Shown one piece after another: positions 455 through 6,260 of a stretch of 6,906 bases of DNA. The notes beneath the pieces are model-generated. The model had not been told where the DNA came from, ran no database searches, and saw nothing but the letters and a program-made list of their open reading frames with translations. Positions within the stretch are counted from its first letter, which is position 1. Every line of letters starts with the position of its first letter. Both the position numbers and the translations under genes were made by a program. Where the stretch lies: IMG/VR virus record IMGVR_UViG_648276671_000005; one strand, given 5' to 3'. This DNA comes from a virus (lineage: Duplodnaviria > Heunggongvirae > Uroviricota > Caudoviricetes).

Positions 455-998
455 TTACTTGTCTTTATCCGGCTGAAACTTATCAGGCACATTTCCGGTA
501 GTTTCCATCAGATAATCGGACAGCATTCGCGGGATGTTTTCATCAAGTTTTGTGCATGCGTTACAGGCTCTGACAACTTCTTTTTTCAGGCCATCCAGCA
601 TGACGGGGGTCATCTGTGGGAAGCTCCTTTGCATAGTAAGCGGGCAGGCTGTCCATGATTGATGAAATCTGACTCGCCAGTTTTGAAAGCGCGTACATGC
701 AAAACTCTGTATCAATCACGTCACCGCGATCGCGCTCGTTTTTAAGTTCCTGCGCCTCCGCCTGTGCTGTCAGTAATCTGATCCTGACTCGTAAGAGTTC
801 ATCATCATCAATCTCGCCTTTGTCGTTTGTAAGCTGGCTAATTGCATTGTTAACCCTATTGTCTATCACGCTGGCAACATCATAAAACGCCTCACGGCCT
901 TTACGTTCAATGGGAGTCACTCCCCACTTGTCGAATGCTGTAGCACTTACCCGGCAGCTTTGCGCCATGGTTTTTTTGTTCATCAGGTGCGATTTCAT
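455..998 (-). pseudogene. Lambda Nu1-like terminase small subunit (terS), interrupted by a +1 frameshift at a C5 run (G5 on plus strand, 605-609)
   Basis: ORF 561..1001 (N-terminal part) contains LTAQAEAQELKNERDRGDVIDTEFCMYALSKLASQISSIMDSLP, matching lambda Nu1 [45 protein letters not shown]. ORF 455..715 in the +1 frame contains MLDGLKKEVVRACNACTKLDENIPRMLSDYLMETTG, matching the Nu1 C-terminus FLKRDIIKAMNKAAALDELIPGLLSEYIEQSG. Removing one C from the run GACCCCCGTCATG joins them into an approximately 178-aa protein (Nu1 is 181 aa). Start taken at ATG 996-998 (MKSHLMNKK...); ATG at 983 is an alternative. Could be a real inactivation or a homopolymer sequencing error. Confidence 0.75.
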
Positions 999-1120
999 CA
1001 ATATCCCAACTTGGTCAAGGTTTCAGGTTGGTGTGTTGGTGTTATCTTTCCCTTTTTATTCATGGAGATAGAGCAAACAACAAAACCACCACCACCACCC
1101 TGAAAAAGCTCATAAATAGC

Positions 1121-1204: not shown

Positions 1205-1618
1205 TCAGATGGTTTTCAGTATGCGATCGATGTCGCCATCATCGCCCGGGTTTCTGCCAGCGTATGCCATACCAGCTGATACGGCTTTCGGGCTGTGCAT
1301 GTCCATAAAGTTTTCAAAGGCTGCGGTAAGCTCTGGTGCAACCTTCTGGCGTTCCTGCTCTATGGTCATGCTAAGGATGCTTTTAGCCGTACCAACATCG
1401 ATACAAGGCACGTTTGCCATTGCACGTAACAGCGGCTGATAGTCGCCAGATTCATCAAGCGCCATAATCGCATCAGAGCGCGGCTTGTCCTTCTCTTCCA
1501 GGCTGTTAAGTTGATATACGGCCTCGTAGGTTGATAAACCTCTGTCAGCCATTGCCCGCGCTTCGGCCTTAAATTTACTCGCCAGCGGTAGCGTCATGAT
1601 GCTTTCATTCGTTGCCAT
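1205..1618 (-). CDS. Hypothetical protein (137 aa), last gene of the capsid operon
   Basis: ORF-track ORF with SD GAGGGA 5 nt before the ATG (complement of 1619-1630), 12-nt gap after the gpD-like gene, terminator directly downstream. No family recognised by eye; no obvious match to lambda FI. Confidence 0.65.
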   Translation of the reverse strand: MATNESIMTLPLASKFKAEARAMADRGLSTYEAVYQLNSLEEKDKPRSDAIMALDESGDYQPLLRAMANVPCIDVGTAKSILSMTIEQERQKVAPELTAAFENFMDMHSPKAVSAGMAYAGRNPGDDGDIDRILKTI

Positions 1619-3490: not shown

Positions 3491-3913
3491 TTAAAACGGT
3501 ATGTTATCCCCGTACGGATCATCGTTACCCGCCTGTTGTTTTGCCCTGTTCAGTGCGTCAGTAGCCTGCCCTTGCTGGCCTTTTTTGCCGCCCGGTCGCG
3601 CCGTTCTCGCACTGATTACGCTGTCTGCGATAACCTGCCAGCCCTGCCGCGTTTCGCCGTTCTGGCCTGTCCACTGGCTTACCTGCATGTTACCCGCCAC
3701 GCTCACCAGTTCGCCTTTGTGGTGTTTTGCCAGCGCATCGGCCTGTCTGCCAAACGCCAGGACGGATAACCACATCGTCGCCGTTCCGTCATCTGCCTGG
3801 CTGCACGGAAGGGGGACCGCCATACTAGCCATCGTCATTTGTGTACCCTTGCTGGTGGTCTTTAACTGCGGGTCAGCCACCAGCCGCCCGTAAGCCGCTA
3901 TCTGTGCTGTCAT
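3491..3913 (-). CDS. ssb: Single-stranded DNA-binding protein (SSB), 140 aa
   Basis: OB-fold region WLSVLAFGRQADALAKHHKGELVSVAGNMQVSQWTGQNGETRQGWQVIADSV resembles E. coli SSB [52 protein letters not shown]. Gly/Gln-rich linker and acidic C-terminal tail DDPYGDNIPF (compare SSB DFDDDIPF). Confidence 0.85.
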   Translation of the reverse strand: MTAQIAAYGRLVADPQLKTTSKGTQMTMASMAVPLPCSQADDGTATMWLSVLAFGRQADALAKHHKGELVSVAGNMQVSQWTGQNGETRQGWQVIADSVISARTARPGGKKGQQGQATDALNRAKQQAGNDDPYGDNIPF

Positions 3914-4155
3914 GCTGTCTGCTCTCCGGTTTTAACGTTGATGGTTGTCACCTGTTCCGCTTCGGCAATCTCCCGTTCTGTCAGCGTGGCAAAGTTTGCA
4001 GCTGCCGTTGTCATGAATGCGCTAATCAGTTCGGGATGTGCTTTCGCATATCCTTCCCCGGCGTTGCGGTCGATGATTTTTATCGACACTCTTAACCAGT
4101 GTTCCGTCAAATCAAGGGCGTGCGATTGTGATTTTTTTGTGTGCTTCGCTGTCAT
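3910..4155 (-). CDS. Hypothetical protein (81 aa), first gene of the ssb operon
   Basis: ORF-track ORF whose stop overlaps the ssb start as ATGA (3910-3913); sits directly downstream of the iteron/ori region. No family recognised. Confidence 0.55.
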   Translation of the reverse strand: MTAKHTKKSQSHALDLTEHWLRVSIKIIDRNAGEGYAKAHPELISAFMTTAAANFATLTEREIAEAEQVTTINVKTGEQTA

Positions 4156-4202
4156 AGGCTTTATCTCACAGCAGTAAATTAAAATTTTTGCGTTTTAACC
4201 CT

Positions 4203-4430
4203 TCACCTGTTCACCTTTTGATATTTTCCATTTAAATTCATACTGTTAAGTGGTGAACAGTTTCACAAAAACTATTCACCAACTGTTCACCACTGTTCAC
4301 CCTTGAAGCTCAATAAACAACCAAAAAGGTGAACAGTGAATAGTTTGGTGAACAGTTCATAAATAACTGTTCACCCTATAATATACTGATATAAAAGATA
4401 TTTATGACAGGGTGAACAGTGGTGAACAGT
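4203..4430. repeat. Iteron array, putative origin of replication (nine perfect 9-mers GGTGAACAG/CTGTTCACC in both orientations)
   Basis: Forward GGTGAACAG at 4252-4260, 4328-4336, 4347-4355, 4411-4419, 4421-4429; reverse CTGTTCACC at 4207-4215, 4283-4291, 4293-4301, 4367-4375; plus degenerate copies (4273-4280, 4336-4344). Flanked by an AT-rich stretch at about 4170-4250. Starts immediately after the replication-protein stop. The core TGTTCACC is, as I recall, the P4 ori/crr type I iteron bound by P4 alpha. Confidence 0.8.
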
Positions 4431-4442
4431 TATTCCATAAGT

Positions 4443-6260
4443 TTAATTTTTGCTGTCGTCATTAGTGACCGATACACATGATGGCATCCAGTCTTCTGAT
4501 TCCTCCGTCAGTGTCACGTTTGAACGCAAACCGTGCTTCGTTTTCCGTTTCATATACTCCCTGCCATATTCCGCCATTGCCCCCGGCATATCTTTACCGA
4601 AGCGCGTCAGTGTTACAGGTTTACCAAACCCATGTGCCCTCATATAAGCCAGATAGGCATGATAGAGATACCTGCGTGGGCTGAATGGCACAATTTCAGC
4701 ATTACCCACTAACAGGCCATCACACATTACCGACGCCATGAGATAGCCGCAGAAGTCCACCAGCGAATCCCCCTCTCGCTTTATCGCCAGTGCTTCTTCA
4801 GATTTCTGCTGCTCATATAACAGGCGTCTGGCTTCGTCCTGGTCAGCAAACCGTGTAAGCAGATGGCGAATCACTACCGCCAGCTCACCTTCTATTTTTT
4901 CCGCCAGCATTGGATCGCGTTCGTTCTCCGGTACAACTTCCGAAAAATTGAATATCACCCGACGACGTGAGATCCCCCCGCTGCGGTCACTGAATGACAT
5001 GGCGTTATTGTTAACCGCCAGCACTACTGCCGGAATACGCGTTGAGTAGGGGGCTTTGTGTTTCGGGTCAATTGCCACCTTGTCACCGCCTGTAATAGCC
5101 TTAATCCCTGCCCCATCACCAGCGTAGCGGGTCATATCCGGCATGATAATCAGCGAAAAGCCAACCACTAACGCGCGTTCCCTTGCATCTTCCAGCGCCT
5201 TCATGCTTGCCGATACTGTGTTGGCCTTACCCGCCAGCATGGTGCAAATCTCCGCCATCACGCTTTTACCACTTCCCCCTGGACCTGTTACCTCAATGAA
5301 TAACTGCCAGTCGTACCGGTTCGCCAGCACCATGAATAATGCAGCCAGTACGCGATCCGCCTTGCGGTCATTCTCAGCCACCGAACGGCGTAACCACTTC
5401 CAGAAATTCGGCGCATGTGTTGCCAGCGTTTCCCCCTCTGCTGGTGGGCTGAAAGGTAATTCACTGGCAATTAACAACCAGTCGTTTTTGTTATGCTCCC
5501 GAAAATTACCTGTTCTGGTATCAAATACCCCGTTACTGAATCCAATCAGGTTACGGGCTGTATTCCCCATTACAGGCAAACTTAACTTCATGGTATCGAC
5601 CGCCGATTTAATGGCGTTCTGCGAATAGCTGATCTCCGCATCAATGAAAATCTGCGCCATAGCTCGCTGTAATTCTTTATCCTGTACTGGCTCCCATACA
5701 ACGCCGTTGTAATGGTGAACAGTGTCAGAGTCAGCATGAATCGCCAGTTCACCGCCATAATGTGCCAGGAGAACTTCGCCGCGTTGACTTGCTCCCATCT
5801 GGTTAAGCGCCAGTGATGAAGCGTTATCGTCTTTTACCCGCTCTTTTTTCTTTACAGGCAGTTCAACTACCTTTTTCTTTTCCGCCAGCTCTGCCCGTTC
5901 ACGTTCCAGATATTCGCGCCAGTTCTCCCGTTTCTGGCTGTGCATTCCTTCAGGATAATAATCAGCATCCCTGACACCTGCCGCTGCCAGTTTCTGCCCG
6001 ATGGTATTAACAAGCCCCGGACGCAATAACCCCGCCTGATAGAGACGCACGCGATAGCGTCCGTCCGGTACGATTTGCAGGTTGTCCAGTTCGGCAAGTT
6101 GTTGCTCTCCAAGCCAGACAGGAGGCACGTTATCGCCAGCCAGTCGCCCGTCCTGTTCCTGCCACTGCTTCGCATGTGCCCACGCATCACTACCCGCAAA
6201 AATGATGACTTCCGTCATTTTGTCACGTGGCTGGTGTTTTAAATTTGGCGCTTTTTTCAT
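4443..6260 (-). CDS. P4 alpha-like replication protein (D5-N / SF3 helicase, putative primase-helicase and origin-binding protein), 605 aa from ATG 6260
   Basis: Walker A motif GPGGSGKS (in EVTGPGGSGKSVMAEI) and Walker B-like LVVGFSLIIMPD; size and layout typical of phage/plasmid P4-family primase-helicases; iterons immediately downstream. The ORF-track start at 6275 is GTG; the ATG at 6258-6260 (MKKAPNLKHQ...) overlaps the upstream stop as ATGA and has a GGAG SD. Confidence 0.85.
   Translation of the reverse strand: MKKAPNLKHQPRDKMTEVIIFAGSDAWAHAKQWQEQDGRLAGDNVPPVWLGEQQLAELDNLQIVPDGRYRVRLYQAGLLRPGLVNTIGQKLAAAGVRDADYYPEGMHSQKRENWREYLERERAELAEKKKVVELPVKKKERVKDDNASSLALNQMGASQRGEVLLAHYGGELAIHADSDTVHHYNGVVWEPVQDKELQRAMAQIFIDAEISYSQNAIKSAVDTMKLSLPVMGNTARNLIGFSNGVFDTRTGNFREHNKNDWLLIASELPFSPPAEGETLATHAPNFWKWLRRSVAENDRKADRVLAALFMVLANRYDWQLFIEVTGPGGSGKSVMAEICTMLAGKANTVSASMKALEDARERALVVGFSLIIMPDMTRYAGDGAGIKAITGGDKVAIDPKHKAPYSTRIPAVVLAVNNNAMSFSDRSGGISRRRVIFNFSEVVPENERDPMLAEKIEGELAVVIRHLLTRFADQDEARRLLYEQQKSEEALAIKREGDSLVDFCGYLMASVMCDGLLVGNAEIVPFSPRRYLYHAYLAYMRAHGFGKPVTLTRFGKDMPGAMAEYGREYMKRKTKHGLRSNVTLTEESEDWMPSCVSVTNDDSKN

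Follow-up and report, generated by a model that had tools for sequence, protein, structure and literature searches.

For this E. coli phage satellite, a PICI related to EcCICFT073, the origin of replication is almost certainly the repeat array at positions 4156-4442. The window (i.e. the whole stretch of 6,906 bp that was analysed) carries it directly downstream of the gene for a 605-aa alpha-like SF3 helicase. Judged from sequence comparisons, it is very probable that this integrative PICI has its origin at 12 sites recognised by the C-terminal winged-helix domain of that helicase. The origin assignment is based on the colinearity of the array's modules with ori and crr of phage P4, and on a position and architecture equal to those of the tested EcCICFT073 origin. 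The C-terminal domain was proposed as the reader of the repeats because it matched PDB 1KA8 and covaried with the iteron word among relatives. Both the likely ori and its reader domain had been put forward in a first-pass annotation, and both proposals gain support from these comparisons.

All plausible genes of the window lie on the minus strand. The array (4156-4442) is strictly intergenic: it is bounded by the 605-aa gene, whose stop codon is at 4443-4445, and by an 81-aa ORF with its ATG at 4155. Its GC content is 33%, against 49% in the window. The 9-mer CTGTTCACC had 10 exact matches in the window, nine of them inside 4207-4429, whereas dinucleotide-preserving shuffles of the window displayed a mean count of 0.03 and none out of 200 reached 10. 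The first-pass annotation had reported these nine exact copies in about 230 bp with entirely correct coordinates. The strings that it quoted at 4281-4301 and 4411-4430 as tandem pairs in both orientations are exact, and the AT-rich stretch that it mentioned is also found, as spacers of 19-20% GC. The conserved unit, however, is the octamer TGTTCACC rather than the full 9-mer, whose 5' C is lineage-specific and mostly replaced by G in the Klebsiella, Citrobacter and phage Ant copies.

The tenth 9-mer copy lies within the 605-aa gene (5714-5722), where it spells the conserved residues T-V-H-H. An inverted partner with one mismatch (5746-5753) is located 32 bp off. Near-identical E. coli versions of the gene had this copy at the corresponding position, and the Ant and Klebsiella genes lacked it; an internal binding site was thus not retained, and the copy is probably coincidental.

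Together with three degenerate copies, the nine exact ones amount to 12 sites in 4156-4442, organised as two inverted modules of about 100 bp (Table 1). Each module consists of three tandem iterons, one inverted iteron, a spacer of about 35 bp (19-20% GC) and two tandem iterons. The reverse complement of the distal module displayed 72% identity with the proximal one (z = 11.9 against shuffles). Start-to-start spacings between successive sites were 8, 44, 21, 11, 10, 34, 9, 10, 21, 43 and 10 bp. Within modules, sites of the same orientation were 10-11 or 21 bp apart, i.e. about one or two helical turns, and the starts of inverted neighbours were separated by 21 or 43-44 bp. Among all 30-mers of the window, the least stable one (4376-4405, dG -27.0 versus a mean of -41.0 +/- 3.4) was found in the proximal spacer, and the third least stable one (4221-4250) in the distal spacer.

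The A/T tract at the distal edge (4170-4199) was kept across genera despite differing downstream genes; possible roles are bending, unwinding or promoter activity. In the distal spacer, CCATTTAAAT (4228-4237) agrees at 8 of 10 positions with the P4 'ori type 2 repeat' (CCACTTAAAG / TCATTTAAAG), a single copy that could be due to chance. Scans of 3850-4700 revealed neither a sigma-70-like promoter nor an intrinsic terminator. No DnaA box (at most one mismatch) was found in 4156-4442, no IHF site was detected in the array and no Rfam family matched the window.

Table 1. Coordinates of the array, its modules and the neighbouring genes in the window. Iteron orientations are those of TGTTCACC.
Feature	Position	Strand	Remarks
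Element-encoded SSB	3491..3913	-	Pfam SSB, E = 4e-16; two genes downstream of the origin
81-aa ORF	3910..4155	-	Directly downstream of the origin; phrog_1231 (PHROG without assigned function)
Intergenic origin region	4156..4442		Two inverted iteron modules and flanking A/T tracts
Distal A/T tract	4170..4199		In gene orientation: AAACGCAAAAATTTTAATTT
Gene-distal module	4200..4301	-	Reverse complement of proximal module
Distal module iterons	4200-4207 (degenerate), 4208-4215, 4252-4259, 4273-4280, 4284-4291, 4294-4301	+, +, -, +, +, +	4273-4280 reads TATTCACC
Degenerate copy CCTTCACC	4200-4207	+	Two mismatches
Distal AT-rich spacer	4216..4251		19% GC; second candidate unwinding site
Degenerate copy TATTCACC	4273-4280	+	One mismatch
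Palindrome centre	4302..4327		31% GC; between the two iteron triplets
Gene-proximal module	4328..4428	+	Order - - - / + / 35-bp spacer / - -
Proximal module iterons	4328-4335, 4336-4343 (decayed), 4347-4354, 4368-4375, 4411-4418, 4421-4428	-, -, -, +, -, -	
Decayed copy GTGAATAG	4336-4343	-	2-bp deletion
Proximal AT-rich spacer	4376..4410		20% GC; candidate DNA-unwinding site; counterpart of the P4 ori 35-bp spacer
Exact copies of CTGTTCACC	4207, 4283, 4293, 4367	+	
Exact copies of CTGTTCACC	4252, 4328, 4347, 4411, 4421	-	
605-aa Pri-Rep / alpha-like gene	4443..6260	-	Pfam D5_N, SF3 helicase (DUF5906), Pox_D5 C-terminal domain
C-terminal origin-binding domain (aa 501-598)	4467..4760	-	Matches PDB 1KA8
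Putative wing segment (aa 566-590)	4491..4565	-	GREYMKRKTKHG-LRSNVTL; proposed specificity determinant
N-terminal 150-aa domain	5811..6260	-	Occupies the position of the P4 alpha primase region

A clear relationship was observed with the cis-acting sites of phage P4. In the P4 record NC_001609, 16 'ori type 1 repeats' are annotated: ori contains six, and each 120-bp crr unit, of which there are two, contains five. Of these 16 repeats, 11 are exactly TGTTCACC and the remainder are one base off. The core had therefore been correctly named, at first pass, as the P4 alpha binding octamer. Conservation extended beyond the octamer when the comparison with ori and crr, also suggested there, was carried out. 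P4 ori (9310-9413) aligned column for column with the proximal module, with shared spacings of 10, 21/22 and 43 bp (73% identity, z = 11 against shuffles), and the reverse complement of the distal module displayed 70% identity with it (z = 12.8). Both modules were also colinear with the P4 crr units, at 65-69% identity (z = 7-9). Both replication genes are on the minus strand, the proximal module being oriented as P4 ori and the distal one as crr.

The initiator is likewise related to that of P4, although not over its full length. As in the P4 system, where TGTTCACC octamers occur in both orientations, the array is accompanied by an SF3 helicase ending in a winged-helix origin-binding domain homologous to that of alpha. 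Residues 150-600 of the 605-aa protein and residues 320-771 of P4 alpha were 51% identical over 452 aa, with a nearly gapless alignment. Residues 502-598 matched PDB 1KA8 (E = 1.8e-24), an entry published under the name 'phage P4 origin-binding domain' and described as a winged helix with a conserved tyrosine pair in helix 2 (PMC2777425). The earlier assignment to the P4 family thus holds for the helicase and the C-terminal domain and does not hold for the primase region, which is replaced by an unrelated domain of 150 aa. Whereas alpha displays Zn_Ribbon_Prim and Toprim domains, Pfam recognised neither in the 605-aa protein. No DnaG-type primase (Zn ribbon, Toprim) was recognised: residues 1-150 are devoid of cysteines and hhalign gave a probability of 0.1 between this domain and the Toprim region of alpha. 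No sequence-level relative of the N-terminal domain was found by hhalign or by a PDB profile search. The 'DNA primase' annotation carried by these proteins is probably misleading. The ATG of the gene (6260) overlaps the stop codon of an upstream DUF4222 gene (ATGA).

The element also encodes its own SSB, whose C-terminus (..DDPYGDNIPF) is similar to the acidic tip of E. coli SSB. In E. coli, this tip recruits replisome partners, a property that could matter for a replicon whose initiator is devoid of primase.

The window matched islands in E. coli chromosomes, each about 10.5 kb long, in which the genes succeed one another as int, HTH/AlpA, Icd-like, DUF4222, pri-rep, array, small ORF, SSB, lambda E-like capsid, D-like decoration and Nu1-like. 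Enterobacterial PICIs were defined by five components, i.e. int, an AlpA-type regulator, pri-rep, a capsid-morphogenesis gene and terS, gathered in about 10 kb and transcribed in one direction (PMC10085698). This organisation was found in the close relatives from E. coli A33 (L002) and CFT073 (L085) and in a circular record (L086, see below), the window itself spanning pri-rep to the terS-like gene on a single strand. P4-like satellites display sid, psu, delta and epsilon in addition to alpha, alpA and int (PMC10085698). The element lacks the first four and possesses lambda-type E, D and Nu1-like genes as well as an SSB gene, and a classification among P4-like satellites was rejected. The 4156-4442 region itself was matched 1,067 times in complete E. 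coli genomes, 670 of the 5,426 genomes having at least one match, and no annotated feature was present under it among the matches listed (complete E. coli genomes, RefSeq).

EcCICFT073 (strain CFT073) is syntenic with the element over the Icd-like, DUF4222, pri-rep, ori, small ORF, SSB, capsid E and decoration D genes, the SSB gene occupying the same position. The Pri-Rep proteins are 49% identical over their full length and have the N-terminal domain in common. A gap of 288 bp 3' of its pri-rep displays the same two-module scaffold of 12 sites. The two elements differ in the iteron word, T(G/A)TCTACC instead of TGTTCACC, and the C-terminal domain diverges accordingly. A conditional plasmid with pri-rep and ori of EcCICFT073 replicates, and replication is lost once either is deleted (Fillol-Salom et al. 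2018, PMC6092414). More generally, Gram-negative PICIs have their origin directly 3' of the initiator gene, where AT-rich DNA is flanked by sets of iterons (PMC6092414). In the window, the first iteron is located 15 bp past the stop codon of pri-rep, likewise immediately 3' of it in the relatives examined, and the two inverted modules comprise spacers of 19-20% GC around a centre of 31% GC. Since position and architecture agree, the array is regarded as the counterpart of the tested EcCICFT073 origin. The TGTTCACC allele may already be drawn in Fig. 2a of that study (Fillol-Salom et al. 2018, PMC6092414).

The same data bear on the possibility that the array is a mere crr-like cis enhancer and that initiation takes place elsewhere in the element. 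Like P4 crr, the array stands directly downstream of an alpha-type gene; its distal module has the orientation of crr units and is bordered by an A/T tract similar to the one edging each of them. Yet, both modules are slightly nearer to P4 ori than to crr (70-73% versus 65-69%) and, in EcCICFT073, the equivalent region suffices for replication together with pri-rep (PMC6092414). Moreover, a search of the full 10.5-kb element, and of 4 kb on either side in relatives, revealed no other TGTTCACC cluster. As the element lacks a second cluster, an accessory site of the crr type is unlikely, and we consider this explanation highly improbable. P4, on the contrary, requires two separated cis elements, ori and a distant crr, where the element displays a single exact octamer cluster, so that the P4 mechanism is not transferable unchanged to the origin proposed here.

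Two relatives stood out by their genomic state. At least three copies of the element, each of about 10.5 kb, followed one another head to tail in E. coli A33 (L002, NZ_CP028742.1, 4256978-4281487); many of their genes were marked as frameshifted, possibly a consequence of sequencing errors in such repetitive DNA. The second one (L086, NZ_CP148328.1) is a complete PICI deposited as plasmid pZ1323HEC0475-3, a circle of 10,790 bp for which no plasmid replicon typing was listed. Its gene and array are as in the window, with 280 of 287 array positions identical. The half from int to the array displayed 93.5-100% identity to the window per 200-bp block; beyond the stop codon, it took no more than about 300 bp for identity to reach background level. 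L086 and the window differ in the head module, which in L086 has a ClpP-like protease/capsid fusion, and the mosaic junction coincides with the distal edge of the iteron array. This circle is suggestive of, without proving, a module that supports extrachromosomal replication; it could also stem from excision or from circularisation at assembly, without being a stable replicon.

Several observations concern the remainder of the window. A perfect hexanucleotide microsatellite, (GGTCAT) x 9.3, occupies positions 156-211 in a minus-strand ORF with a strong AGGAGG ribosome-binding site, whose product starts MEA(MT)9ETEALGIIRS... and which continues beyond the left window edge; the length of this in-frame Met-Thr repeat could vary between strains. 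A 137-aa ORF (1205-1618, minus strand), for which RefSeq relatives give either 'hypothetical' or 'head-tail connector', matched the C-terminal end of head-maturation-protease phrog_53 (positions 494-568 of 583). This is the region where the lambda Nu3 scaffold overlaps gpC, and the product may be a scaffold protein. If so, the element would supply capsid, decoration and scaffold proteins and no portal, protease or large terminase. Finally, the 146-aa 'terminase small subunit' (561-1001, minus strand) matched the C-terminal half of Nu1 only (profile positions 77-147 of 164), its 60 N-terminal residues being unrelated to the DNA-binding domain of Nu1.

A total of 80 loci of relatives were retrieved from bacterial genomes and a subset was examined in detail. 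In the latter, the array systematically started within a few tens of bases past the stop codon with the same scaffold, and the iteron word was essentially missing from the remainder of each locus. Iteron columns were more conserved than spacer columns (0.925 versus 0.754, Mann-Whitney p = 4e-10) in the 11 TGTTCACC-type arrays compared, which came from six genera. Six word types were found on this single scaffold: TGTTCACC, TGTCTACC, TCTCCACC, TGTCCGCC/TGTCCACC, TATCTACC and TATACAC. It was considered whether different words enforce incompatibility between co-resident elements; this was rejected, as several same-word copies coexist in single genomes.

The iteron word tracked a short segment of the C-terminal domain (aa 566-590) across relatives. 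From P4 to Zobellella, TGTTCACC-type proteins displayed an uninterrupted [KR]x[KRH][TS][KN]xG[ILM][RQ]xN in this segment. Specific insertions of 1-5 residues characterised the TGTCTACC, TCTCCACC, TGTCCGCC and TGTCCACC types (the L007 and L012 segments contain ..KRKQCTRGPDKGRTISN..), and a divergent loop without insertion the TATCTACC type. For pairs with at least 85% helicase-core identity, segment identity was 82% between same-word and 39% between different-word proteins, these pairs, from which the covariation p-values also derive, being non-independent. The most telling pair came from Kluyvera ascorbata (L004) and K. georgiana (L012), with 100% identical helicase cores (window aa 296-480), 37% identity in the segment and different words, which indicates, at the sequence level, a recent swap of C-terminal domain and ori as a unit. 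Likewise, DNA identity between the window and L007, which has a different iteron, was 88-98% over most of the helicase core and collapsed at about 4580, where the segment starts. By canonical winged-helix topology and the tyrosine pair in helix 2, this segment should be the beta-hairpin wing; the assignment relies on topology because the AF2 model of the C-terminal domain was poor (pLDDT 41). Since L082 and L079 displayed near-identical segments and different words (TATACAC and TGTTCACC, respectively), the wing is not the sole specificity determinant.

These relatives are also informative about the genes that follow the array. The latter lies directly upstream of the 81-aa ORF, and no terminator separates this ORF from pri-rep, so an operator or promoter could be imagined for the downstream operon (81-aa ORF, SSB and capsid genes), bound by Pri-Rep or another regulator. 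Against this stand the lack of a sigma-70-like promoter in the above scan (3850-4700) and the position of the mosaic junction at the distal edge of the array. Furthermore, the array was kept in front of ProQ/PerC (L007), HTH/M78 (L019) and the protease-capsid fusion (L086), as well as in front of HK97-type head genes, including the capsid gene, in phage vB_KppS-Ant. As a main function, this explanation is very unlikely, although a secondary regulatory role beside that of origin is possible. A packaging (cos/pac) recognition site for the small terminase was also envisaged, as the element encodes a Nu1-like protein and terminase small subunits bind repeated sites. Its probability is negligible: the array is about 3.2 kb away from the Nu1-like gene, covaries with the helicase C-terminal domain and not with the packaging module, and is shared by Ant and L086 despite their different head and packaging genes. 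Both the operator and the packaging explanations are disfavoured by the constant association of the array with the helicase gene, irrespective of the genes that come next. As for chance or decaying repeats without function, for which nothing more than the few degenerate copies could be invoked, they hardly deserve consideration in view of the shuffles, of iteron positions conserved across genera while spacers drift and of a scaffold constant across six words.

In its layout, the array amounts to two inverted copies of a module found singly in ori and in duplicate in crr of P4. Upon induction and excision, the protein would bind the iterons via its C-terminal domain and oligomerise on each module. 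One or both of the 35-bp spacers (about 20% GC), which lie between oppositely oriented iterons, would then melt, and two helicase rings could load in opposite orientations, leading to bidirectional theta replication. Head-to-head double hexamers were documented for related D5-type helicases (PMC12137749). Priming is probably host-dependent because the 605-aa protein is devoid of a recognisable primase active site; the host primase (DnaG) might fulfil this task, possibly aided or recruited via the element SSB.

Iteron origins downstream of PICI pri-rep genes and P4 type I iterons are already published, and the understanding of how such origins work is unchanged by our findings. A literature search for the octamer TGTTCACC with 'iteron' returned no match, and the octamer alone yielded unrelated papers among the matches listed. 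Three points may be new, namely the homology at module level between PICI origins and P4 ori/crr, the series of covarying wings and iterons, and the lack of a primase domain. A broader reading, for and against which we see about equal grounds, is that PICI origins and P4 ori/crr derive from one ancestral module, that module and initiator wing form a swappable specificity cassette (at least six words, with a readable wing-to-DNA code) and that Pri-Rep is an origin-binding helicase with a dead TOPRIM remnant and no primase. If true, the single ancestor would contradict earlier publications, in which the origin organisation of PICIs is regarded as unique and P4 and PICIs as having evolved independently. 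The origin is placed here on a satellite family occurring in about 12% of complete E. coli genomes and left unannotated in the RefSeq matches examined, and two satellite families usually treated as independent are linked via origin module and initiator domain. The matched initiator/iteron variants, some of them with identical helicase cores, could be used for the study of wing-DNA reading or as orthogonal replicons.

Among known systems, plasmid iteron replicons (RepA, pi, TrfA) also display repeated initiator-binding sites beside AT-rich DNA. The array differs from them by its 8-bp sites in both orientations instead of direct repeats of 17-22 bp, by an initiator that is a helicase and not a member of the RepA family, and by the lack of DnaA boxes in 4156-4442. 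It was not assigned to these replicons on these grounds, and their copy control by handcuffing is not implied for it; the label 'iteron-controlled' given at first pass should accordingly not be read in the sense of plasmid copy control. Palindromic origins are also used by SV40 large T antigen and poxvirus E5/D5, which are SF3 helicases with their own origin-binding domain (PMC12137749); the inverted symmetric sites found here are compatible with head-to-head double-hexamer loading, although the origin sequences are unrelated. Phage P4 displays three tandem type 2 repeats, in contrast to the array, which contains no such set. In P4, ori (one module) and crr (two direct modules) are 4.5 kb apart, whereas two inverted modules abut here; by virtue of their colinearity with those of P4, the window has back to back what P4 separates by 4.5 kb. 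Ziegelin et al. reportedly found in 1993 that alpha binds both ori and crr, looping the intervening DNA; if so, the adjacent modules of the satellite would provide the same juxtaposition directly.
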